Below are positions 1 to 64,000 of a DNA stretch of 64,000 nucleotides, in pieces (positions within the stretch are counted from its first letter, which is position 1; each line of letters starts with the position of its first letter). Under the pieces are notes generated by a model. The model was not told the origin of the DNA. It was given only the letters and a program-made list of their open reading frames with translations, and did no database searches. The stretch is taken from positions 82,619-146,618 of the forward strand of contig CAYYWO010000001.1 in the NCBI GenBank assembly GCA_964474885.1, given 5' to 3'. The DNA comes from Candidatus Hadarchaeota archaeon (GTDB taxonomy: Archaea > Hadarchaeota > Hadarchaeia > Hadarchaeales > JAWBSP01). Both the position numbers and the translations under genes were made by a program.

Positions 1-1438
1 GAAGGAGTTTCATGCTTTTCGCCCGATGAGTGCAGGCTTGCAAGTCTAATGTAGAAATTTTCTGGAATCTCCACCTTTATTCCTCTTCTCTTACAGATCT
101 CCTTAACGATTTCAGGAGGGATGCCATGTGAGTCGTACAGCAGAAATAGCTGATCTGAGATGTTCAAACCGTCCCTTATCATCCGCTCCACAAGTCTTTC
201 TCCCTTGGACAGGGTTTCCTGATATCTCTTGTGCTCTAGTTCAGATACCGTCAGTATGTAGCTTCTCCGCTCCCAAAGCTCTGGAAATTGGGATTTGAGA
301 AGTTCGAGTTCATACTCCATTAGCTCCAAAAAGTTGGCATCAATCCCGAGTTCTTTCAACAGTCGTATGGTTCTTCGCAAAACGAGCCTAGCCAAATAGC
401 CCTCGGCCATGTTGCTGGGTGTTATGCCATCTCCAAACATGAAGGCTAAGCAGCGCAAGTGATCTGCCACGGCGTAAACATTTTCTATGGGTCTGAGCAA
501 GTGATCTGTCTCCTCCGGTGTCAATCCAATCTCTCTTGCAACACGTTCACGAAGCCACTTCAATCCTCTACCTGATTCGACATCCATTGCCCCAGCTAGC
601 TTGGAGCTCGTCTGAAGCACGTGTTTCGCCGGTTTTTTAACCCCTGCCATCTTTTGGATTTTTTCAACCATGGGACCAAAAATGGCGTCGTACGATGTCG
701 GGTCCCCCCTGGACAACCAAGTCAGTCTCTCCATTCCATAGCCAGTATCGACTATCTGCAGGGGAAGGATCTGCCGGGATCCATTTTTTATCGCGTACCT
801 CATGAAAACAAGGGTGGCCACTTCCAAGCCTCTTACGTTAACCTCGAAATCCTCTCCCGCGTTTCCTCCTCCTTCCCAGAAGCCTTCCACGTAGGTTATT
901 TCTTCTGGGGCTATTCCGAGTTTTTCAGTTAAGAATTCATGACAGAATTCAACTGTCTCGTGGTTCCAGTAGACGGTTTCCTCCTCAGAGTTGAAGGCGT
1001 GATGCCCCCCCATGAAAAAAAGAGTGAAGTGCTTTCCGGAGCGTCCGACATTGTCAATGTCCTTCAGTCTTATGCTCGGCTGACTGATGACTAGGGGATT
1101 TGCAGGAGGTGGAACGGAGCCGCTGGTGACCCAGGGCTGAAAGTTTGCAATGGATGCTATAGTGAGGTAGATGTCATCTCTCCATCTGGCAACTACAGGA
1201 TACCTACGGAGAACTTTATGTCCTTTCTCTTCAAAGAATTTCAGGAACTCTGACTCCATCTGAGCTTGGGTGTACTTCCGACGAGTGGGAGGGTTGCCTA
1301 AAAAAGCGTATTCATCGCAGGGGCTGTCACCGCAGGTTGTTCGGTCAGGATCAAGAGTCCAGAAATACCTACCGCATTTCTTACATCTTTTTCTCTGAAA
1401 TCCCAGCTTCCTCCAGAGTCTGACTTCGTAGATGCCCA
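1..1438 (-). CDS. alaS: Alanyl-tRNA synthetase, N-terminal part (gene continues beyond window start)
   Basis: Minus-strand translation from the ATG at 1438 gives 'MGIYEVRLWRKLGFQRKRCKKCGRYFWTLDPDRTTCGDSPC...RYPVVARWRDDIYLTIASIANFQPWVTSG...GGHHAFN...DTGYGMERLTWL'. This is the archaeal class II AlaRS N-terminus including the zinc-ribbon. The frame stays open to position 1, so with no in-window stop it is missing from the ORF track. Confidence 0.85.
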
Positions 1439-1443
1439 TCTGA

Positions 1444-3843
1444 TTATAGTCCTCGTTCCCTAATTTCTAATGCGGTAACTGGTAGCACTGGCTCGACTTG
1501 GGTGGGCATGTCCTTTGCCTTGTCTCGGTAAAAGCGGTAGAGGCAAGCTTGAGCTGCAGATTCAAGCTCTTCTCTATGCGTTATGAGTATGACTTGCTTG
1601 ATTTGCTCCGGAAGTTTTTCCCTCAGGAGGGCACAAAATTCGGATATTATGCTCCTGTCTAGGTTATGGGTGGGCTCGTCGAGAATCATCCACCCTATTC
1701 GTGGTGCTAATGCAATAGAAATGGCCATCCTAATTATCAGGCAGGCGCTGGCTCTCTCAGCTCCGCTAGCGACCCCCTCGATGGGATGCCAGGTCCCGTT
1801 CCTGTCTCGGAGTTTGAACACGTAGTTCCCGTCCTCAACTCTCAAGGCAACCGTGGTAAAGTCACCATAAGGATATACTCCTGACCAGAAGGCATCCATG
1901 TACTCGTTGACTGCAGTAACGAAGTCTTCACGAAGAGCCGATTGTGTCTTGACAATGGCCGATTGAACTTTAGATAGGAATTCTTGAAGCTCCTGGCGAT
2001 GTGCTATTTCTCTTTCAAGCCTGTCAAGCTTGTTGACCTTTTGCTGGTATTCATCTGCCAGTTGCAGATCCTTGCTTAGCAACGCCTGCAGGGATCGTTG
2101 TTTGTCCTGTAATTCTCCCAATTTCCTGTTTAGCCGGATTTCCTCTTGACTAAGTAACTGTAGCCTGTTTTCGTCAAAGAACTTTTTCTTCTCAGCGAGT
2201 TCACGATTCACTCTAATGAGTTCAGCTTGTTTTGCTACGAGCAACAGCTTGATTTTTTCGAGTTCCATTCTGTCGTCAATCTTTCTTTTGAGCTCCTGAA
2301 GCTCTTGAAGTGACTTTTGTTCCTGATCCCTTAGTTTTTCGAGCTCCTGTTGCAATTCCTGAACTGCGTTTTTCAGCTCACCCTCTTCTGGCCCGATCTG
2401 TTTGAGTCTCTCTGATATAGCCTCGAAGTCTGCACGGCACTTCTCTAAACCCTCAGCCTGCATCCTGAGCTGTTCTATGTTCCGATAGGACTGTCTTAGA
2501 AGTTCAAGCTCTTTTTTCAAAAGATCAAGCTGAGCTCTGGTTTGTTCTTCCTCCTTTTCCAGTTCTGCTAACGTTTGTTTCTTTCGATCTACAAGAGAAG
2601 CTTTCTTCTTCTCGTCCAGTGGACTCTCGCAGACTGGGCACACAGCTTCTGCCCGACTGAGATCCTTCAAGCTCTTTGAGGTATCTGAGGCCAGGGTGCG
2701 AATCCTTGTAAGTTCTTGGGTCTTATCTTGAATATCCTTTTCCAGTCTGCTCAATCTTTCTTCCACACTGTCCACATTCATTCCTTCGAGGCGCTGGCTT
2801 GCCTCCATTTTTTCCTGAATCGATTGTTGAAGCAGGTTCAGCTTCGTTTCCAGTTGGGCCCGTTCTGTCTTGAGGTACTCTAACCTAGAGTTTTTCGTTT
2901 GGAACTCGCCTTGGACCATTTCTTTTTTAGCCTGAATAGCTCGGAGCGAGCTTTCTATAATGTCTTTTTGATTTTTCAAAACCTCCAGTGGTATGTTGGC
3001 CAAATTCCCAAGCCTCTTCTCCCACCCCTTCTGTTGCTCCATAAGGCCCCGTACCTCAGCTTGTAACTCGCCATGTTTTTGTTGCAGCTGATTGATTTCT
3101 TGCTGAATCGACCTAAGTTTCTCCAACTCATCCCGAATTGCGGAGAGTCTCTGATTGTATTCATTCAGCTCCCGGGTGGTGGAAGCAATCTGTCCTTGTA
3201 TTTTCTGAACTTCTTCATTAAGTTCCCGAAGCTTCTCTCTAGGTTTTTCGTTTTTTAGATTCTCGAGATCACGCTGTCTGCTGTCAATTACCCTCTTCAG
3301 ATAATTAACTAGGCGGACAGCATTTTTTCTAGCCTGCTCTAGCTGGTCTATACCGAGAATCTGATCTATCCTTCTTTTTCTATCCTTGTCCACAAGCAAG
3401 AGATCCAATTCATCTTGCTCGCTGTAGACAGCTCTAGAATAGAGTTCAAAGTCTATGTTGTCCAGTACCTTCTGGATTTCCTCTGTGACCTTCCTCGAGC
3501 CTTCTGGTACGACGAGCTTCCCTTCTTTCCGGAGCTCGGCTTTTGATCCTCCACCTCTTTCAATCTGTCTTGTGACGGTGTACTCACAACCGTCAGGTGC
3601 GATGAAAGATACCTCAACGGTCGCTCTTTCCGCTTTATCTGGCCTGTTTGTGATCAGATCCTCCAGCTTTATCTGTCGGCGTTGTACGGCGCTTACTGTT
3701 CCGAAAAGAGCAAAAGTTATTGCTTCAACTATTGAACTCTTGCCGCTTCCTGCATGACCCACGAGCACGTTGGTGCCTTTTCCAAATTCAATCTCAGTTT
3801 TACGATGGGACTTCCAGTTTTCTAGCTTAACTCTTGTGATCAT
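1444..3843 (-). CDS. rad50: DNA double-strand break repair ATPase Rad50
   Basis: 799 aa. Walker A 'GHAGSGKSS', long heptad coiled coil, zinc hook 'CPVC', ABC signature-like 'ASGAER', Walker B/D-loop 'MILDEPTHNLD'. Start overlaps mre11 stop (ATGA). Confidence 0.92.
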   Translation of the reverse strand: MITRVKLENWKSHRKTEIEFGKGTNVLVGHAGSGKSSIVEAITFALFGTVSAVQRRQIKLEDLITNRPDKAERATVEVSFIAPDGCEYTVTRQIERGGGSKAELRKEGKLVVPEGSRKVTEEIQKVLDNIDFELYSRAVYSEQDELDLLLVDKDRKRRIDQILGIDQLEQARKNAVRLVNYLKRVIDSRQRDLENLKNEKPREKLRELNEEVQKIQGQIASTTRELNEYNQRLSAIRDELEKLRSIQQEINQLQQKHGELQAEVRGLMEQQKGWEKRLGNLANIPLEVLKNQKDIIESSLRAIQAKKEMVQGEFQTKNSRLEYLKTERAQLETKLNLLQQSIQEKMEASQRLEGMNVDSVEERLSRLEKDIQDKTQELTRIRTLASDTSKSLKDLSRAEAVCPVCESPLDEKKKASLVDRKKQTLAELEKEEEQTRAQLDLLKKELELLRQSYRNIEQLRMQAEGLEKCRADFEAISERLKQIGPEEGELKNAVQELQQELEKLRDQEQKSLQELQELKRKIDDRMELEKIKLLLVAKQAELIRVNRELAEKKKFFDENRLQLLSQEEIRLNRKLGELQDKQRSLQALLSKDLQLADEYQQKVNKLDRLEREIAHRQELQEFLSKVQSAIVKTQSALREDFVTAVNEYMDAFWSGVYPYGDFTTVALRVEDGNYVFKLRDRNGTWHPIEGVASGAERASACLIIRMAISIALAPRIGWMILDEPTHNLDRSIISEFCALLREKLPEQIKQVILITHREELESAAQACLYRFYRDKAKDMPTQVEPVLPVTALEIRERGL

Positions 3844-5069
3844 GAGCCCAATCGTTCCTCTATTATCTTGTCGATCTTTACCTCGGGATCCTCCTCCTCG
3901 CTTAGCAGATGGTAGAGTTCGTTTAAAGACAGCGGCATGCTTGTTGTTAACTTCTGCAAGTAAGCCTCTAAGAGGCGCATTGTTTTTTCCCTCAGTGAGA
4001 GTCTACTGCTCTTTAGCTCCCTGATTACCTCAGCCTTTTCGCCGAGAGATCGGGGGACAAGAGAGCTTTTATCAATCTCTAAGAGCGCGCGGCCAGAGAA
4101 TTCGTCGATGATCGGTCTGAAGTCCAAGTCGCTCAGAGACAGACCGCGAGCAACAGTGCCCAGCAACTTGATCTTTATGAGGGGAGACTTGCGTGGGTTC
4201 TTTCTAGGTTTCGACAGGATATTTTCCACTACGTCTTTGATAGTTTTGTTTATCTCATCTCTCTGAGCTTCAGAAAAAGCGACTTTTTCGTAGTAGAAAT
4301 CTCTAACCGTCTCGAGTTCCACGAATTCGTACGAAATCTTTGAGGAGGAGATATCTATCAGATAGAACCCTTTTTCTTTTTCAGTCTCTAGCAACTGTGT
4401 TCTGACAGTTGATCCGGGAAAGAGGAGTGGCTTGCCCCTCACGCGAGTCTCGTTTCGCAAGTGAACATGACCGCAAACGTAAAGATCGAAACCGGGTGGT
4501 AAGTCGGAAAGCTGTATCCTAGCCTGCTCCCCCTTTTGGAAGACGAACGGTCCAATCGATTGGTGAAGAATCAAGATGTTTATGGCATTCTCGACGGGGC
4601 GTGGCTTCCAGTATTTAAGCACATCCAAAGCTCGGCTCTCGTTGACATAGCTCATTCCATGGATAGCGACTTTGCCATCAGGTCCCTCAAAAATAACCTT
4701 GCTACAATGGAGATAGACGAGGAAACCGGCTTCATGAAGGACGTGGAAAACGTTGGTGCTACCCCTAGACAAGAATTCATGGTTCCCGTGCACAGCGACG
4801 ACAGGTATACCGGCAAAGTTTTCTTTTGCTTCAGTGCAGGAAAGATTAGAGGATACCTCCTTTGGTATCCTCAAGATCCGGATGGCCTCTTTCCAGACCT
4901 CTAGCGGCGGTCTCTGAATGTTGAATAAGTCACCAGTCAGTAGGATGAGCTCAGCCCCTCTTTGGATGGCCTTTCTGAACGCCTCCTCCGCCTGTTCGAT
5001 TGTGTCCCTGTATCTGGGGCTACCATACTTAAAGCCCAAATGAGTATCGGATATCGCAGCAATTTTCAT
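3840..5069 (-). CDS. mre11: DNA repair nuclease Mre11 (calcineurin-like phosphoesterase)
   Basis: 409 aa. Phosphoesterase motifs 'ISDTHLG', 'GDLFN', 'GNHE', 'GHVH'. Translationally coupled to rad50. Confidence 0.9.
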   Translation of the reverse strand: MKIAAISDTHLGFKYGSPRYRDTIEQAEEAFRKAIQRGAELILLTGDLFNIQRPPLEVWKEAIRILRIPKEVSSNLSCTEAKENFAGIPVVAVHGNHEFLSRGSTNVFHVLHEAGFLVYLHCSKVIFEGPDGKVAIHGMSYVNESRALDVLKYWKPRPVENAINILILHQSIGPFVFQKGEQARIQLSDLPPGFDLYVCGHVHLRNETRVRGKPLLFPGSTVRTQLLETEKEKGFYLIDISSSKISYEFVELETVRDFYYEKVAFSEAQRDEINKTIKDVVENILSKPRKNPRKSPLIKIKLLGTVARGLSLSDLDFRPIIDEFSGRALLEIDKSSLVPRSLGEKAEVIRELKSSRLSLREKTMRLLEAYLQKLTTSMPLSLNELYHLLSEEEDPEVKIDKIIEERLGS

Positions 5070-5431
5070 GCCTGAAAACTAGTCTTCTCCTTATTAACTC
5101 TATCGTCGGGGCCTCCAAAAGGGAGGGGATGACGAGACACTTCCAGTCACCTCTCTCCCTGAATTTATGGCGAAATATCGTGATCGCTAGAGATGCCAAA
5201 AAGACCTGTGACTCGGCGGAGGCACACGTAACAAGCACAGTATTTCCAGTTCCCATGGGCTGATGTAGCTTGCAACCGTTCAAGAGCACCCAACAAGGCT
5301 CCTGAAGCACAACTAACATCTGTGGAGATGGAGCCTCCTCACTTCAGCCTTGCGCTGGACATGCCCCTTTGAAGCAGGAAGCCCCCGGAAGTGAGGTTCA
5401 CGTCAGATTTTTCCCCTGAAGGCATTCATTC

Positions 5432-6625
5432 ATGATGACTCTCGCATGGACAGAAAAGTACAGGCCGAAAACCCTACGGGAGATTGCTGGGCAACCAGCA
5501 GCAGTGGAGGCAATGACACGATGGGCAAAAGGATGGGAGCGTGGGAAACCAGATAAGCCAGCCCTCTTGTTGTACGGGCCCCCTGGTACCGGCAAAACTT
5601 CAGCTGCACTAGCACTGGCTAGAGACATGCACTGGGACTGTATTGAATTGAACGCGAGTGATGAGAGAACCTATCGGGCGATCAAAACGATTGCGGAACG
5701 GGCTAGGATGGGTTCCGTTCTGGGAGGTCGGAAGATGATACTCTTGGATGAAGCAGACAATGTCTATGGAGTTGAGCGGGGCGGCTACCGAGCTATTTTG
5801 GAACTGCTCCAGACGTTCTCCACACCTGTGGTTCTAACTGCAACCAATAACAGGGACATACCAGATTCTGTCAGAAGGATGTGCCGTGAGGTCTCCTTCA
5901 CAAAAGTGAGGGCCACAACTGTTCAGAAGGTCCTTTCCAAGATATGCGAAGCTGAGAAAATCCGTCTTCCGGCTGAAACCTTGAAACTGATAGCCGAACG
6001 TTGCAAAGGAGATTTGAGAGCCGCAATAAACGACTTACAGGCGACTTGTGCTTTGCCTGAGTCTAGGGCGCACGTATCGATGCGGGTCAGTGAGATAAAT
6101 ATTTTCCAAGTCCTAGGGGCACTGCTGAAAGCCAGATCCGCCTCGGAAGCGAGGTCTCTCTTATTTAACTTGGATATGCCTCCCGACGAGGCTTTAAGCT
6201 GGATATGCGAGAACATCCCTAGGATGTTGAGAGAAGTGGATGATCTTGCGAGAGTTTATGATCATTTGGCCCAGGCAGATCTTTATCGTGCGAGAATTCT
6301 CAGACGACAGGCCTATAGGCTCATGAAATATTTGGTCGACTTTATGACGGCAGGAGTTTCTTTGAGCAGAAGAGGGGACTTCTCATATGTAAAATTTCAG
6401 TTCCCCTCCATAGGAATTCTCATGAGTCGAACTAGAGAAGTTAGAAATCTCCGGGACAGTGTAGCTTTGAAAGTAGCTAAGTATTGTCATACTTCCAGCC
6501 GAATTGCTACGAAGCATTTTCTTCCATATCTTCGATACATCGTTCGCTCTTCTCCATCAGTAGTCGAAAAGTTGCAACTGACTCCTGACGAGCTGAGTTT
6601 TCTAGGGGTTAATGAGAATAGTTAA
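5432..6625 (+). CDS. rfcL: Replication factor C subunit, probably large subunit
   Basis: 397 aa. 'EKYRPKTLREIAGQ', Walker A 'LLLYGPPGTGKTS', 'ELNASDER' RFC box. No small-subunit 'SRC' motif. Confidence 0.75.
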   Translation: MMTLAWTEKYRPKTLREIAGQPAAVEAMTRWAKGWERGKPDKPALLLYGPPGTGKTSAALALARDMHWDCIELNASDERTYRAIKTIAERARMGSVLGGRKMILLDEADNVYGVERGGYRAILELLQTFSTPVVLTATNNRDIPDSVRRMCREVSFTKVRATTVQKVLSKICEAEKIRLPAETLKLIAERCKGDLRAAINDLQATCALPESRAHVSMRVSEINIFQVLGALLKARSASEARSLLFNLDMPPDEALSWICENIPRMLREVDDLARVYDHLAQADLYRARILRRQAYRLMKYLVDFMTAGVSLSRRGDFSYVKFQFPSIGILMSRTREVRNLRDSVALKVAKYCHTSSRIATKHFLPYLRYIVRSSPSVVEKLQLTPDELSFLGVNENS

Positions 6626-7715
6626 AAGGTTTCAGCTGGGCAGGCTTGTAACACCTGTCCTTAATCGCCGTCTACCGGTTCACAATTGGTATCTCATGAA
6701 AGAGAGCTTCTCGAGGGATCTTGTAGTTATGCTGGTGAATAGCTTTTGGTTATGTAAAGGCGATAAGGTTTTAGACCCTTTTGTTGGAGCAGGAACTACT
6801 TGCCTAACCTGCAAGGAACTTGGTATAGATAGTATCGGTCTTGATGTGCACCCACTCATGCTCTTCGTTTCTCGGACGAAGACGGCTGATTACTCGCTCC
6901 CAGACCTTCAAGAAAGAGCGAGGGAAATATTCTCGGAAAAACCTGGAGAAACCTCCTCTCCTCCCGATTTGCAGACCTATTTTCCTGCCCGGGTTCTCAA
7001 TGAGTTATGGTTTTACAGGGCTAGAATCCTTGAGCTGAAGAACCCGGAGCAGGGGTTCTTTCTCTTAGCTCTCCTCAGGGCCGCAATGGAGTGCTCTCTT
7101 ATCGAAAAGGACGGGGCGGTACTAAAAATCCTGCATGATAAGCCGGTTCCTAGGTTTCTAGATTCTTTTAGACGAATAGTTGGCTGGATGCTGGATGACC
7201 TGAAACGCTTTAAGAGCGGAGGGGGGCAAGTGGAAATAAAGGAAAGGGATGCAAGATTGGGTTTAGACGAAGAGGTAGATGCAGTAATAACTTCTCCACC
7301 TTATCTGAACAAAACTGAGTACATAACTGCTTACAAAATTGAGGAAAGAATATGTGCCCTGCCCTCGAGCAGGCCAGATGCCTTTATTGGCTCTAGGAAA
7401 CACAAACTCCCCAGCTTTCTGGAAGATGTTTGTCCCGATGAAGCCCCTGAGGTCATCGCCTACTTTTCAGATATTTGCGAAGTTCTTGAGAGACTTCATG
7501 ATGTTTGCAAGGAGGGGTCAAAAGTTGCAATGGTTGCATCGGATGGAGGTTTTAGTGACAGAGTAGTCCCAGTCTGCTTACCTCTCTGCCGTCTTGCTGA
7601 GAAGGTTGGTTTCAGAGCCAAGAAGATGCTGATAGTGAACGAAAGGTACTGCACCACACCTTCTAGAAGGAAGGTAGGTAAGATGCAAGAAGCGATTCTG
7701 ATTTTTGAAAAGTAG
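6612..7715 (+). CDS. Class I SAM-dependent methyltransferase with amino-methyltransferase-type motifs (possible orphan N4/N6 DNA MTase)
   Basis: 367 aa. Motif I 'VLDPFVGAGTT' near N-terminus. Motif IV 'ITSPPYLNK' about 170 aa downstream. Overlaps rfcL stop by 14 nt. Confidence 0.6.
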   Translation: MRIVKRFQLGRLVTPVLNRRLPVHNWYLMKESFSRDLVVMLVNSFWLCKGDKVLDPFVGAGTTCLTCKELGIDSIGLDVHPLMLFVSRTKTADYSLPDLQERAREIFSEKPGETSSPPDLQTYFPARVLNELWFYRARILELKNPEQGFFLLALLRAAMECSLIEKDGAVLKILHDKPVPRFLDSFRRIVGWMLDDLKRFKSGGGQVEIKERDARLGLDEEVDAVITSPPYLNKTEYITAYKIEERICALPSSRPDAFIGSRKHKLPSFLEDVCPDEAPEVIAYFSDICEVLERLHDVCKEGSKVAMVASDGGFSDRVVPVCLPLCRLAEKVGFRAKKMLIVNERYCTTPSRRKVGKMQEAILIFEK

Positions 7716-8604
7716 GTCTGAAGTAGGGTTCTCTGAGTTGCACTGCCTTTTTTAAGGCGGATGATATTTCCTTTCGATCTTGTTTTTTCAGCGCCTCTCT
7801 AGCATCCACGAGATTATTATTCCTCAGGAGGCAGGGCTTGAGGAAGCCGTCAGGTGTGACTCTAAGGCGGAAGCAATTCATACAAAACTGAGGATTGTGC
7901 ATGGGTTTGACAATTTCTACTACGCAGTTGTCTAGGTAATATTTCTTTCTGAAGTGCATTGGTCTTGTTTCAACCTTTCTAGCTAACTTGTGAATCTTGT
8001 TTTCAACCTCCTTCAGATCCACCCAAAAAGGTTGTAAACCCCTTTTTAGGGGTAAAAGCTCTATGAGTTGTAGAATAAGACCATATCGAGAGCAAAATTC
8101 GATGAAGTGCTCAATCTCTTGGTCATTCACCCCCCGTAGTAGTACCATGTTCACTTTTATTGGCCGTAGTCCAGCATCTTGAGCGCTTTTTATACCCTCA
8201 AGTACATCATCTATGCACCTCCTGCCGGTGATGAGTTTGTATTTATCTGCGGAAAGGGTGGGCAAGTCCACGTTCACCCTCTTGAGACCAGCATTAGCCA
8301 GCCTAGGGGCCAGAGGTGCAAGTAGTGTGCCATTAGTTGTCATGGAAACTTCTAAGTCGGACATGCCCTCGATGATCTCACAGATGTCCCTCCGCAGGAG
8401 GGGCTCACCTCCGGTGATCTTCACCTCTTTTATTCCTAGCTCCTCTTTAGCCACCGAAGTGAGTTCACGGATCTCATCGGGACCCAGTTCATCTTTTCTC
8501 CTGAGATATCCTTCTGAGTGGCAGAAAAAGCAATTCAGGTTACATCGGTTTGTAACAGAGATTCTGAGCCCCCTAACTGGACGGCCGAATCTATCCGTCA
8601 CCAA
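7663..8604 (-). CDS. moaA: GTP 3',8-cyclase MoaA (radical SAM, molybdenum cofactor biosynthesis)
   Basis: 313 aa. Radical-SAM cluster 'CNLNCFFC', 'ITGGEPLL', MoaA C-terminal domain. Confidence 0.88.
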   Translation of the reverse strand: MVTDRFGRPVRGLRISVTNRCNLNCFFCHSEGYLRRKDELGPDEIRELTSVAKEELGIKEVKITGGEPLLRRDICEIIEGMSDLEVSMTTNGTLLAPLAPRLANAGLKRVNVDLPTLSADKYKLITGRRCIDDVLEGIKSAQDAGLRPIKVNMVLLRGVNDQEIEHFIEFCSRYGLILQLIELLPLKRGLQPFWVDLKEVENKIHKLARKVETRPMHFRKKYYLDNCVVEIVKPMHNPQFCMNCFRLRVTPDGFLKPCLLRNNNLVDAREALKKQDRKEISSALKKAVQLREPYFRPTFQKSESLLASYLPSF

Positions 8605-60131: not shown

Positions 60132-63100
60132 TCACCACCCTATTGCCATCCAGTGGATTGGAATGTCCCAATCCACCCCCGTGTTTACCTTATCCTGTTG
60201 CAACCATGCCTTGAAGCCCAGCGGGCTCACGTCATACACTTGGCAGACCCAGATGTTCTCTGCGGAGCTGGCAGTTTCTATCTCTGGCGTGACGATCACA
60301 ACGGGGAGGCAGTTGAAGGGTCTGGGGAAGCTGACTGAGAACCCACCCTCACTTGTTAGACCGCTTTTGATCTGCCCCCACTGAATGAGGAGACCTCCGA
60401 TCCGGATCCACCACCAGTTTTCATCCCCTCCGATATTCTCGGAATTCTCGAGAGATGCCTCTAGCCTCCTCACCTTGAGCGGGCCCAGCACAGGGTAAGA
60501 GGTATCGATGTATGGTATTCTGGCGAAAGTTTGTTCTTGTCCCACTTGGATCTCTTCAGGCTCCCATAAGGCAGGTTTCCTGCACCACAAATGCTGCTTG
60601 GGTATAGGGAAAGTAATACTCCCGCCTGGCTTGACCCATCCGAGCCCCAACCTCCATTCTCCCTCCCCTTGATTCCACTCGAGTCTCACTGGGACAGGGA
60701 CCGAGGCTACGAGGTCAACTTTACACTTGTGAAGTGTCGGGGGCTGGGGTCTCCATTGAGAAATGACCACCCTGTTGTTCTCATAAAGCTGACAGGCATC
60801 ATCGGTAGCTACGAGCAACTGGTAAGTACCGCTCTCTGGTGGGAGGAGCCAGCCCTCCCACCTCAGACTGAGATTTTGGGTGGCGTCCTCCCAAGAGTTT
60901 GTGCCCGGTTTTCTGGCCTCTATGATGACATCATCGACGGCGATCCAAGATTCCTCTGATCCACCGATCCCGGCTTGATCTTTCACATAAATGTACAGGC
61001 GTACGGCTGTCACGCTGGATCGGACGGTCATCTGCCCCTGCATCTGGTACCAGACTCCAGTAGAGACGGAGTGTGATCCAGACAAGTAACGTGAGCATAT
61101 GGTTTTCCACTCTGATCCCTCAAGCACCTCCAATCTGATTTCCTCTACATCTAGTTCTCCATCCCCTCCGTAGCAGTACCAAAGGGAACCCCTGACTTCG
61201 TATCCGGCTGGGATTTCAGTAGGCAGATCTTGGGACCAATAAGCGTATCCTATATACGTGGTGGTGCCATCCCATGGTCTGTCATATCCCCAAACTTTCA
61301 CGGAGCCGCTACCGTCACCTGTATGATCCTCGGTGGTCCAGCCTGGTTGCTTATCGGTTTCTCCCGGGTCTGAATGATCTCCCAGCACCCAATTATCTGG
61401 CTGTCCATCACCGTCCGTATCTGCCATTTTGCCATTTGTTGTTTTATTTTCCCAATCTCCAGCTTGATCAATTACCTCCAGACTCAAGTCGTCTACAAGT
61501 ATTGCGGAGACCTGACCATCACCATCATCCCTGACACCGATGTGGATCAAGAAGTTGTCTACTGTTCCGGTAGTAGTGTACTCCTTCTTGAAGAGATACC
61601 ACTTCTTGGTCGTTACAGAATGGCTTTCGTCGGTGCACCAACCCCAGCTCTCCCAGCTCCCGTCCTGTCTGATCTTGACTTGGACATTTTCGTAGTCTAG
61701 CTCCCCATCTCCTCGGTAACAGTACCAGAATTGTATCTTGATAGTCGTGTTCGGTGGAATTGGGCCGATGGACTGCCACCACTCCGCATCTTTTTGGGAA
61801 CCGTTTCCCGAGATGACACATAGACAAGCACTATTGTCAGCAGAGTGTTCCTGCCCGACCAAGGTAGCTAGACTGTCGTCTCCTGTTGTGTAGGTGACTT
61901 TCCAATCCCAGTCGGGGAGAACTGCGATGTCTTGAGCAAAGTTGCCGTTGACGATCCTTTCTTGTCCATCTGACAGCAGCGAAACACTGTCAATCCACAA
62001 CCAGTTATAGCGATCTCCCACTGAACCTCCATAGTCTTCCACATAGATGTATAATCGGACCCATTCTACCTCAGAGGAAGTAGTATAGCTACCTGTTGCG
62101 GATGTCCAGTCTGTCGCTCCACCGACCTCTCCACTGAATGAAGTCACGGTTGACCAGCTATCCCCATCCAGAACCTCCAACTTGATCGTGACTTGGTCGA
62201 ACTCCCCGTTCGTTGTCCAGTAGAATGAGCCGGACAGGGAGCTTCCTGCAGGGATGGGAGGAGAAATGAACTGTCTCAACTCCACTTCCTCATACTCTGT
62301 TTCAAGTGCTCCCGCCTGTACATCGATGGCAAAGGAGTGACTCCCATCACCATCGTGGTCCCGGTGATACTCAGTGTCGAAGTTCGATCCCTTGCTACAG
62401 CATACGCCAGGGGCCATCATGTCCTCAGGATCCACTCGGTACACGAACATGATCCAGTTGTTTGGGCGGATCTCTCCGTTTCTCAGGACTTCATGCGTCC
62501 CCTTGAAGGTGGCTGCAACTTTTTCGGTAGTCCCATAAGCGGGATTGTCTACTACGCCGCCGCATTTATTCGGGGCACCATAGACATCCGTTCCTCTGTA
62601 GGAGTCAAAGTTTGTTCCAGCGTAGTAAAAGTACCTCAGTCCTTCATCCATGGTCGCTTGGATGTTGTCCGATAATCGGGATTTCGTGGCCGAGGGATTG
62701 CCATAGTACATGTAGATTTTGGAGGGGGTTGAGGGAACGCGGATCCAGATCTTGGTAGAGGTCGTGTTTTTCCCAGATTCTACCCACCAGGGTATCTCGG
62801 TTCCGTCTCCTGTCACGAACCTGAGGTCGGAGAGATCTGGCTTCAGCTTTCCCTGGGAGATGAGGCTTTTTGTGTCGAGTGTGAGGAGCAGCTGAACATC
62901 GGGAGCGTTTCGCACTACGCTAGCTCCAGGCTCGGCGTATCTGACTTGGAGAACCGGGCGCTCACTTGTTGCCTCTCTAGAGTTGAACTCCGCCCAGACA
63001 CCATAGGCCCGCTCTGCCTCTATATCAGTCCGCATCATGAGGGATATCAGGTTGTCGGAGTCCAGCTCTCTCTGGACCAAGTCATAGGGGATGGCCCACT

Positions 63101-64000
63101 TTATCCATTCATCGACAGGGTTTTGTCCATCGTTCGGCCCATACCAGGTGACTGAACCTATAATGTTCTCTGAGGGATTGGGGTCTGTTCCATAGGGCTG
63201 ATTGTTCCAAGTTATCGTGGTCTCCTCCCAGCTGTCATCGCCACAGAAATGTAGAACGGCGGTGAATGAATCATCAGCCTTGTAGTCAGCCTCCGTGCAG
63301 TAGATCATGAACTTGGCTGAAAGGATGGTCGAGCCAGGAGGTATGGAGGATAGATCAAACCGGAGATATGAGCGGTGATCATTTCTCACGAAGAACCGAT
63401 AATATGATTCGACTCGGAGATCTGCGGTGGTTCCGTAATTTCCGTCCGGATCTCCCTCTCGGACCTTTGCATCGGCAACCGGTTCGAGTGTAACGGTTTT
63501 GCTGATACCACCACTCAGGAACATGAAGGTCTCGGGGATCTGGATGGCCCTCCTGAACGACCAGCCGTCCAAGTGCCATTCAGTGTTATCCATTTCTGCC
63601 CCTAGCCTCAAGTTTTCACCTATAATCCCCACATCTGGACCGCTGAGTTTCAGGTGTCCGTAAATCTCCAAGTTCTCTCTTATCGGAGTTCCCCAGTAGT
63701 AAGGTATGCCTATTCCAACCTTTCCTGAAACATATGAAACCTGTTCCGAACTGCCCAGCACATGAACGGAAGCCAGCAGATCCCTTAACTCGAAGTAGGT
63801 GACAACGAATCTGTTATAGTGGGTTGAGGAGGTTCTAGCCCCCACTCCAGCCAACTTTCCCAACTCCCGCGGGGCATCTGTAAAGGAAAGAATAAGATCT
63901 CCTTCGTAGTATACCTCAAACTCGCCCGAATAATATACCACCCTGAAGCTGTGCCACCCGTTGTTTATAGCGAGGTCGTTTTCTGCAAGGACATCGCCGT
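60132..64000 (-). CDS. Giant secreted multidomain lectin/adhesin-like protein (over 1290 aa; N-terminus outside window)
   Basis: Reading frame stays open past the ORF-track start, which is only a GTG at 63941, up to the window edge. Domain-like modules by eye: 'VGIGIPYYWGTPIRENLEIYGHLKL' tail-fibre-like motif; DNRLRE-like module 'YLRFDLSSIPPGSTILSAKFMIY...DSWEETTITWNNQP'; three about 150-aa repeats carrying 'GDGELDYENVQVKI' / 'GDGELDVEEIRLEV' / 'NGEFDQVTIKLEV'; PA14-like 'GTYQLLVATDDACQLYENNRVVISQW'; C-terminal H-type-lectin-like 'LLIQWGQIKSGLTSEGGFSVSFPRPFNCLPVVIVT...GFKAWLQ...IHWMAIGW'. Confidence 0.75.
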   Translation of the reverse strand, partial: GDVLAENDLAINNGWHSFRVVYYSGEFEVYYEGDLILSFTDAPRELGKLAGVGARTSSTHYNRFVVTYFELRDLLASVHVLGSSEQVSYVSGKVGIGIPYYWGTPIRENLEIYGHLKLSGPDVGIIGENLRLGAEMDNTEWHLDGWSFRRAIQIPETFMFLSGGISKTVTLEPVADAKVREGDPDGNYGTTADLRVESYYRFFVRNDHRSYLRFDLSSIPPGSTILSAKFMIYCTEADYKADDSFTAVLHFCGDDSWEETTITWNNQPYGTDPNPSENIIGSVTWYGPNDGQNPVDEWIKWAIPYDLVQRELDSDNLISLMMRTDIEAERAYGVWAEFNSREATSERPVLQVRYAEPGASVVRNAPDVQLLLTLDTKSLISQGKLKPDLSDLRFVTGDGTEIPWWVESGKNTTSTKIWIRVPSTPSKIYMYYGNPSATKSRLSDNIQATMDEGLRYFYYAGTNFDSYRGTDVYGAPNKCGGVVDNPAYGTTEKVAATFKGTHEVLRNGEIRPNNWIMFVYRVDPEDMMAPGVCCSKGSNFDTEYHRDHDGDGSHSFAIDVQAGALETEYEEVELRQFISPPIPAGSSLSGSFYWTTNGEFDQVTIKLEVLDGDSWSTVTSFSGEVGGATDWTSATGSYTTSSEVEWVRLYIYVEDYGGSVGDRYNWLWIDSVSLLSDGQERIVNGNFAQDIAVLPDWDWKVTYTTGDDSLATLVGQEHSADNSACLCVISGNGSQKDAEWWQSIGPIPPNTTIKIQFWYCYRGDGELDYENVQVKIRQDGSWESWGWCTDESHSVTTKKWYLFKKEYTTTGTVDNFLIHIGVRDDGDGQVSAILVDDLSLEVIDQAGDWENKTTNGKMADTDGDGQPDNWVLGDHSDPGETDKQPGWTTEDHTGDGSGSVKVWGYDRPWDGTTTYIGYAYWSQDLPTEIPAGYEVRGSLWYCYGGDGELDVEEIRLEVLEGSEWKTICSRYLSGSHSVSTGVWYQMQGQMTVRSSVTAVRLYIYVKDQAGIGGSEESWIAVDDVIIEARKPGTNSWEDATQNLSLRWEGWLLPPESGTYQLLVATDDACQLYENNRVVISQWRPQPPTLHKCKVDLVASVPVPVRLEWNQGEGEWRLGLGWVKPGGSITFPIPKQHLWCRKPALWEPEEIQVGQEQTFARIPYIDTSYPVLGPLKVRRLEASLENSENIGGDENWWWIRIGGLLIQWGQIKSGLTSEGGFSVSFPRPFNCLPVVIVTPEIETASSAENIWVCQVYDVSPLGFKAWLQQDKVNTGVDWDIPIHWMAIGW

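Follow-up and report, generated by a model that had tools for sequence, protein, structure and literature searches.

Why would an archaeal gene for the large subunit of the clamp loader, replication factor C (RFC), run directly into a gene for an amino-methyltransferase (MTase), and what might the second enzyme modify? The arrangement lies in a 64-kb stretch of a contig from a Candidatus Hadarchaeota archaeon (CAYYWO010000001.1; the whole stretch is called the window here), in which the end of rfcL, the gene for the RFC large subunit (RFC-L), overlaps the beginning of the MTase gene. In the reading that we favor, to which we assign a probability of about 0.62, the second gene encodes a persistent orphan DNA amino-MTase from a type II restriction-modification (R-M) lineage, which likely forms N4-methylcytosine (m4C), would be produced alongside the clamp loader, and would re-methylate newly replicated DNA.

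A sequence-only reading of the same DNA had taken the first gene to be RFC-like and probably the large subunit, had described the second as a 367-aa MTase overlapping it by 14 nt and carrying DPFVGAGTT and SPPY motifs of the N4C/N6A amino-MTase type, and had raised the possibility of an orphan DNA MTase with no restriction endonuclease (REase) partner nearby. These identifications held. Both open reading frames (ORFs) and their overlap are exact (Table 1), the two motifs fall at residues 55-63 and 228-231, and the first ORF is the RFC large subunit, scoring 339.6 bits against NCBIfam NF003229 (RFC large subunit; cutoff, 280) and containing the Walker A motif GPPGTGKT at residues 49-56 (nt 5576-5599) along with Pfam AAA and RCF1-5-like lid (PF21960) domains. 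The orphan DNA MTase interpretation is in turn supported by the family assignment of the second gene, by the absence of a nuclease, and by the conservation of the gene pair.

Family, fold, and candidate substrate of the MTase

The MTase scores 56.7 bits against Pfam N6_N4_Mtase (PF01555; gathering threshold, 26.7), aligned in two pieces whose order is swapped, and 148.3 bits (E 8.3e-44) against PADLOC MTase_II PDLC03224, a type II model derived from REBASE. The best matches in a profile search of PDB sequences were DNA MTases, namely TTHA0409 (2zie; E 2.6e-13), DpnA, M.MboIIA, and N4-cytosine (N4C) MTases; these DNA-MTase matches, 2zie included, align in permuted segment order. Single-protein and profile searches of the PDB sequences both gave motif-level matches only, and Dam was not among the profile-search matches even at E <= 10. 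At least 292 homologs of the window MTase were found, and a profile search gathered 1,440 clusters (50% identity) at E <= 1e-30. Across the best 150 of these 1,440 cluster representatives, plus repeats, SPPY accounted for 155 of 157 motif-IV-type matches, and motif I lay N-terminal to motif IV in all 133 representatives that could be scored. Since this order holds throughout and the Pfam and 2zie alignments are swapped, the family is best described as a permuted subfamily; the linear order of the beta class, with motif IV before motif I as in the Pfam model, is not that of the MTase. Such a permuted, all-SPPY subfamily, for which there is no solved structure, appears to be new.

Some family members (P0175, P0189, P0192, P0195, P0240, P0246, P0252, and P0271) are tandem two-module fusions of 837-914 aa, each module with its own motif I and SPPY, and these presumably methylate both strands of asymmetric sites. 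Another member, P0177 (639 aa), has an N-terminal LexA module (LexA_DNA_bind plus Peptidase_S24), which reflects a true SOS-repressor/MTase fusion or else the merging of two gene calls.

In an alignment of 41 archaeal homologs, residues D55, G59, and T62 of motif I and I226, T227, S228, P229, P230, and Y231 of motif IV are invariant, and L54, P56, F57, G61, and T63 are conserved in at least 90% of the sequences. The AlphaFold2 (AF2) model built from the 41 homologs (pLDDT 94.3, pTM 0.92) has a class I Rossmann fold that runs from beta1 (motif I) and beta2 through an insert of ~125 residues to beta3, beta4 (SPPY), and then beta5-beta7, with a variable insert of ~45 residues between beta4 and beta5. 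The large insert is modeled as four helices, a beta-hairpin with the conserved K166-D167-G168 (G168 being invariant in the 41 sequences), and one more helix. Its mean pairwise identity is 39.5% versus 43% for the C-terminal catalytic core, and being about as conserved as the core, the insert fits a fixed target better than the fast-evolving specificity of R-M systems. Judging from the model, residues 81-205 probably read a fixed short DNA motif as a putative target-recognition domain. A Foldseek search of the model against the PDB, a method that is blind to circular permutations, returned generic Rossmann matches only (NNMT and aTrm11; TM <= 0.37), so that it offers no informative structural relative.

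A conserved N-terminal motif, P-V-(Y/H)-N-W-(F/Y)-x-x-K-E-(G/S)-F-S, stands just before motif I (residues 20-27; window 6669-6692). Residues 20-27 also fit the degenerate pattern RxxVxxWY, which resembles a PCNA-interacting protein (PIP) box. They are modeled with a pLDDT of 87-92, probably form part of the folded core, and more likely correspond, in permuted position, to the HPxxKP region of beta-class enzymes than to a PIP-like element.

The surroundings of distant relatives bear on the substrate. The distant bacterial homologs share 22-30% identity with the window MTase, many of them aligned over residues ~1-367; they are ~400-480 aa long and patchily distributed, and members of the archaeal clade are ~360-385 aa long. 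The same-strand ORFs directly 3' of the bacterial genes fall into few families, among them type II REases: the two scanned members of a 21-locus neighbor cluster match PADLOC REase_II PDLC03404 with 383-390 bits, and other REase neighbors match PDLC03525, PDLC03511, Pfam RE_XcyI, and Pfam RE_TdeIII. A further 23 bacterial neighbors are second N6_N4 MTases, and some homologs are fused with a second MTase. That the bacterial homologs are partnered with type II REases argues that DNA is the superfamily's substrate in R-M systems, and from this kinship we infer the same substrate for the archaeal MTase. Its chemistry is most likely N4-cytosine methylation, as suggested by the SPPY motif with its invariant S228. 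A serine at the first position of motif IV (SPPY/SPPF) is reportedly typical of N4-cytosine MTases (Malone 1995; Bujnicki & Radlinska 1999); it is a rule of thumb, not an absolute one. In the closest bacterial homologs (27-28% identity) the 3' ORF is not an REase but a homologous ORF of ~360 aa (L004 4429-5520 and L088 3606-4676), the L004 copy of which matches SIR2-like PADLOC models, and these two loci may hold a defense pair of MTase and SIR2.

Gene context in Hadarchaeota and in other archaea

The start of the MTase gene lies within rfcL, just downstream of a Shine-Dalgarno (SD)-like sequence (Table 1). Both this start and the overlap are credible because homologs align with the MTase from residue 1 onward, beginning with MRIVKR, MRIIKR, or MKIVKR. 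The layout points to co-transcription and translational coupling of the two genes. Conservation of the pair in related genomes had been suggested as a check on the sequence-only reading, and the pair is indeed kept in Hadarchaeota-like loci with overlaps or short gaps: the block rad50(-) mre11(-), rfcL(+) MTase(+) is conserved in most of them, the junction measuring -14 nt in the window, -4 nt in L161-163 and in L164/165, +8 nt in L168, and +20 nt in L001, where it carries the SD sequence GGGAGG. Among these loci RFC-L is only 40-57% identical, and the gene 3' of the MTase differs by locus (moaA, a low-molecular-weight phosphatase, an ATP_bind_1 protein, or a 1,108-aa protein). In tblastn searches neither an RFC-L nor an RFC-S query found an rfcS paralog anywhere in the window, in line with the earlier remark that rfcS does not accompany rfcL here. 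The accompanying statement that most archaea pair the two genes stands in part: it agrees with Pyrococcus, Methanothermobacter, and Sulfolobus, where we take rfcL and rfcS to be adjacent, but not with Archaeoglobus and the haloarchaea, where they presumably lie apart.

The C-terminal tail of RFC-L, ...LQLTPDELSFLG (window 6540-6625), is conserved among relatives, and its motif L[QE]L[TS]x[ED]Exx[FY][LI] ends the short (393-412 aa) Hadarchaeota-type RFC-Ls at five loci (the window, L001, L161, L164, and L168); this ending may be a PCNA-binding motif of variant form. The DNA that encodes it contains the MTase start codon or stops just 5' of it.

We inspected ~22 archaeal homolog loci for context. 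None of them has an REase neighboring the MTase, which sits among housekeeping genes; in the window, where 60 ORFs were scanned with PADLOC, 105 families were matched, and the 25 of them that were listed include no restriction-enzyme model. The neighbors of the window MTase are rfcL and moaA, with no cognate REase, and the locus thus does not constitute a complete R-M system. Across Hadarchaeota, Aenigmatarchaeota, Iainarchaeota, Nanoarchaeota, Nitrososphaerota/Aigarchaeota, and other Thermoproteota, members of the archaeal clade share 35-60% identity. The MTase occurs in every Hadarchaeota-like locus retrieved, with many further matches in Nitrososphaerota/Aigarchaeota, counted as loci and not as genomes. 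No close homolog was found on viral contigs, only distant ones (<= 28% identity), and on that ground a viral or mobile origin of the archaeal clade was rejected. Persistent orphan MTases are documented in archaea, a category dominated by m4C enzymes (PMC10609329), and the window MTase fits their profile: nuclease-less, conserved, and set in a housekeeping context. An assignment to one of the named persistent groups (AGCT, GTAC, etc.) was attempted from a Nitrososphaerota query and failed, as the best 120 of 2,304 matches at E <= 1e-20 bore names of metagenome-assembled genomes (MAGs) or none, and no cultured organism.

Clamp-related genes recur beside the MTase outside the Hadarchaeota. An Aenigmatarchaeota MAG (L003) has the RFC small subunit (RFC-S; NF001679, 456.7 bits versus a cutoff of 303) 5 nt upstream of the MTase. 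In L173 and L176 the start of the MTase gene shares 4 nt with FEN1 (TIGR03674 scores 432 against 352 in L173). FEN1 is likewise upstream in L086, upstream with an intervening GNAT gene in L083, and two genes away in L169, and in L175 PCNA (TIGR00590, 100 against 99.1) stands tail-to-tail with the MTase at a distance of 1 nt. In a neighbor-joining tree the archaeal loci form ~12 lineages, 5 of which have RFC-L, RFC-S, FEN1, or PCNA as an immediate neighbor. By our own rough estimate, which is not a formal test, chance adjacency amounts to ~8/1,500 per lineage, an expectation of ~0.06; with a chance of ~0.005 per lineage, 5 of ~12 lineages correspond to a P of ~1e-7 to 1e-9, and treating the four partner types conservatively as independent gives a similarly rough P of ~3e-7. 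This clamp-gene adjacency across phyla was unexpected. It lends comparative support to the replication-linked marking that the sequence-only reading had entertained and suggests, at the level of gene order, replication-linked DNA methylation.

A literature search for archaeal MTases linked to RFC, FEN1, or PCNA turned up nothing direct, and operonic linkage to these genes is not described in a survey of persistent archaeal MTases (PMC10609329). Tangential to this, a study in Pyrococcus abyssi reported co-purification of a putative adenine MTase with NucS, PCNA, and RFC (PMC4929162). The recurrent linkage of one archaeal MTase clade to RFC-L, RFC-S, FEN1, and PCNA appears to be new. In several non-Hadarchaeota lineages (L170, L173, L176, and L082) a protein of 511-624 aa that combines Zn_ribbon_HMPTM with a radical SAM domain is encoded only a few genes away from the MTase, and in L173 and L176 its gene lies just upstream of FEN1.

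Table 1. Features of the rfcL-MTase locus, in window positions
Feature	Position	Strand	Remarks
rad50	1444-3843	-	Pfam SMC_N/Rad50_zn_hook; divergent from rfcL
mre11	3840-5069	-	Pfam Metallophos; divergent from rfcL
mre11(-)/rfcL(+) divergent intergenic region	5070..5431	.	362 nt; presumed promoter region of the rfcL-MTase unit
rfcL, replication factor C large subunit, short form	5432..6625	+	397 aa
AGGGG, Shine-Dalgarno-like, just 5' of MTase start	6604-6608	+	
rfcL/MTase overlap, 14 nt	6612..6625	+	MTase ATG 6612; rfcL TAA 6623-6625
Orphan class I amino-methyltransferase, N6_N4 DNA MTase superfamily	6612..7715	+	367 aa; motif I before motif IV
Motif I (AdoMet binding), DPFVGAGTT	6774..6800	+	Residues 55-63
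beta2-beta3 insert, candidate target-recognition domain	6852..7226	+	Residues 81-205
Motif IV (catalytic), ITSPPY	7287..7304	+	Residues 226-231

Upstream, rad50 and mre11 belong to a conserved Hadarchaeota-type cluster with the same layout in L001, L161-165, and L168. The intergenic region that separates mre11 from rfcL is 362 nt long in the window, whereas L161, the closest relative, has only 68 nt there. No A/T-rich stretch resembling a TATA element is obvious in the region of the window, and a 96-aa ORF at 5029-5319 (-) that overlaps this region is probably spurious. An Rfam scan of positions 4900-8000 found no RNA family. On the 3' side, moaA and moeA are oriented convergently to the MTase, and moaA (-) and the MTase gene (+) share 53 nt at their 3' ends (7663-7715); the overlapping part of moaA, its tail after REPYF, is not conserved, and the relatives lack the MTase/moaA overlap. 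Other genes in the window are housekeeping genes (gatA/B, a class-V aminotransferase of the IscS/NifS type, hisS, purH, purB, and a Ski2-like helicase). At 60132-63941 (-) a 1,269-aa ORF with CBM96, DUF2341, CBM_4_9, PA14, and a phage tail-fiber gp53-like C-terminal domain resembles a large surface or adhesin-like protein.

Proposed function and competing explanations

We propose that the MTase works as a monomer that would bind AdoMet through DPFVGAGTT and take up the flipped-out target base in its invariant TSPPY pocket, with the helical bundle and hairpin of the insert (residues 81-205) recognizing a fixed short DNA motif. As the distal cistron of a two-gene rfcL unit, it would be expressed along with the clamp loader. 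The two-gene unit, the 14-nt overlap, and the SD-like sequence suggest that the two products are made together, so that methylation capacity would track replication. Given the recurrent clamp-gene neighbors, the MTase would act on freshly replicated DNA, where re-methylation would serve as an epigenetic or strand/age mark and not for defense. A further step, that the archaeal clade as a whole is a replisome-coupled maintenance m4C methyltransferase tied functionally, and perhaps physically, to PCNA, RFC, and FEN1, is one that we offer tentatively and hold to be doubtful.

Several observations weigh against the favored reading. The coupling of rfcL and MTase is not obligatory, because in L166 the two genes are separated by two unrelated ORFs (1346-4942) and because L174, a 7.7-kb contig, has no rfcL and instead an XPD/DinG-like helicase three genes upstream of the MTase. 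In roughly half of the archaeal lineages no replication gene adjoins the MTase, which sits instead by metabolic or tRNA-related genes, the latter in several lineages (AlaX-like, Kae1, ArgRS, CysRS, Pus, and Tpt1), and the ~22 loci inspected are a limited sample. The canonical PIP box, Qxx[LIVM]xx[FYW][FYWL], does not occur in the window MTase, which leaves direct recruitment by PCNA unsupported; it occurs in 4 of 120 MTase homologs, at scattered positions and by chance. A guess at the target motif from observed/expected counts of palindromic 4-mers and 6-mers in the window produced no outlier (4-mers, 0.78-1.13). Lastly, a weak resemblance to aTrm11, seen in Foldseek TM scores and in one JGI annotation, leaves room for an RNA substrate. 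As to the ORFs inserted in L166, a 791-aa ORF and a 388-aa BamB-like beta-propeller, they were considered as nuclease or defense partners and rejected, since neither is an REase (the larger has no Pfam, NCBIfam, or PADLOC match).

The simplest rival holds that this is an ordinary orphan MTase, the remnant of an R-M system, whose place next to rfcL is a lineage-specific accident and whose other clamp-related adjacencies are coincidence or hitch-hiking in gene-dense genomes. The superfamily is typically R-M-associated and patchy in bacteria, and the lineages without a replication neighbor, the split pair in L166, and the missing PIP box all suit such an account. It has more difficulty with an rfcL-MTase pair that persists despite changing downstream genes and RFC-L identities as low as 40%, with the appearance of four PCNA-centered partners in separate lineages at mostly tight same-strand junctions, and with a clade that remains 35-60% identical across phyla, insert included, unlike fast-turnover R-M MTases. 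We therefore regard an accident of position as unlikely.

The remaining rivals change the substrate, as the sequence-only reading had done in allowing for an RNA or protein MTase of the same fold. A housekeeping RNA methyltransferase (tRNA/rRNA m2G, m6A, or m4C) would owe its neighbors to the mixing of replication and translation genes for which archaeal operons are known. Conservation that looks vertical across archaeal phyla, housekeeping contexts that in some cases adjoin tRNA-related genes, weak matches to TIGR01177 and UPF0020, the name Trm11 given to a homolog by one source (JGI), and the place of aTrm11 (6zxw, 5e71; TM 0.35-0.37) at the head of the moderate-rmsd matches in the Foldseek search of the PDB would all accord with it. 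The match to TIGR01177 (Trm11, tRNA m2G10), however, is 33.6 bits against a cutoff of 316.55, the UPF0020 score is below threshold, and a Pfam scan found no THUMP domain, or other RNA-binding domain, in the MTase; on the family choice that the earlier reading had named, the enzyme thus falls to N6_N4_Mtase. It also has SPPY and not the D/NPPY of m2G/m6A RNA enzymes, its full-length bacterial homologs are partnered with REases, and its strongest sequence-profile relatives are DNA MTases, all of which makes an RNA substrate distinctly improbable. A protein MTase (for example a glutamine-N5 or other amide/amine enzyme) that modifies RFC, PCNA, or FEN1 would turn the recurrent adjacency to the PCNA toolbelt into an enzyme-substrate pair, and enzymes with (D/N/S)PPY do include the HemK/PrmC protein glutamine MTases. 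Yet Pfam, NCBIfam, and PDB searches gave no similarity to HemK, PrmC, or Mtq2, and the full-length homology is to R-M-linked DNA MTases, so we give this explanation very little credence.

If the stronger, replisome-coupled reading that we hold to be doubtful is nevertheless correct, the clade would parallel in archaea the logic of Dam/SeqA or DNMT1-PCNA. In archaea without MutS/MutL, of which there are many, it could then open a hemimethylation window for telling strands or their age apart, controlling origins, or keeping track of Okazaki fragments. Non-defense DNA methylation and the marking of new DNA are poorly understood in archaea, and a compact, conserved, nuclease-less, clamp-linked clade is a concrete and cloneable candidate for replication-coupled epigenetic marking. 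Even if the link is no more than syntenic, the gene still illustrates the persistent orphan MTase cleanly, and in a little-studied phylum.

Comparison with known methyltransferases

Orphan and persistent DNA MTases of archaea are already known, as is the superfamily of this enzyme. The persistent orphan type II MTases described, which form m4C or m6A, include the haloarchaeal CTAG m4C group HG1 and, from Nitrososphaerota and Methanomicrobiales, AGCT and GTAC m4C groups (survey by Anton et al., PMC10609329). The window MTase resembles them in being type II-like, free of an REase, conserved, set in a housekeeping context, and probably m4C-forming given its SPPY motif. It differs in the recurrent RFC/FEN1/PCNA linkage. 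With the bacterial type II R-M MTases (PDLC03224) it shares full-length homology at 22-30% identity, the same motif I, TSPPY, and the same motif order, but those enzymes are longer, patchily distributed, and accompanied by a nuclease or a second MTase, whereas the archaeal clade is compact and nuclease-less. TTHA0409 (2zie) and PF01555, by comparison, have the permuted (beta-class) order relative to the window MTase. The archaeal Trm11 enzymes (TIGR01177; 5e71, 6zxw) are alike in being Rossmann MTases in which motif I (DPFxGxG) precedes motif IV (xPPY); the window MTase, in contrast, has no THUMP domain, scores ~10-fold below the family cutoff, reads SPPY instead of DPPY, and carries a 125-residue insert that is absent from Trm11.

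The functional parallels that we propose lie with Dam (alpha class) and CcrM (beta class), which are likewise solitary DNA amino-MTases; the window MTase presumably shares with them a fixed target, and a role on hemimethylated DNA in the wake of the fork is proposed for it. The order of motif I, helical-bundle/hairpin insert, and motif IV in the model is reminiscent of alpha-class Dam, but a PDB profile search detects no sequence similarity to Dam, the catalytic motif is SPPY and not DPPY, and the insert lies between beta2 and beta3. What sets the MTase gene apart from dam and ccrM is its physical linkage to genes of the clamp loader and the clamp. The likeness to eukaryotic DNMT1-PCNA is conceptual only, in that an MTase is tied to the sliding clamp so that methylation follows replication: DNMT1 is a C5-class enzyme that binds PCNA through a PIP box, whereas the window enzyme is an amino-MTase without a canonical PIP box, and its link to the clamp is seen at the genomic level.

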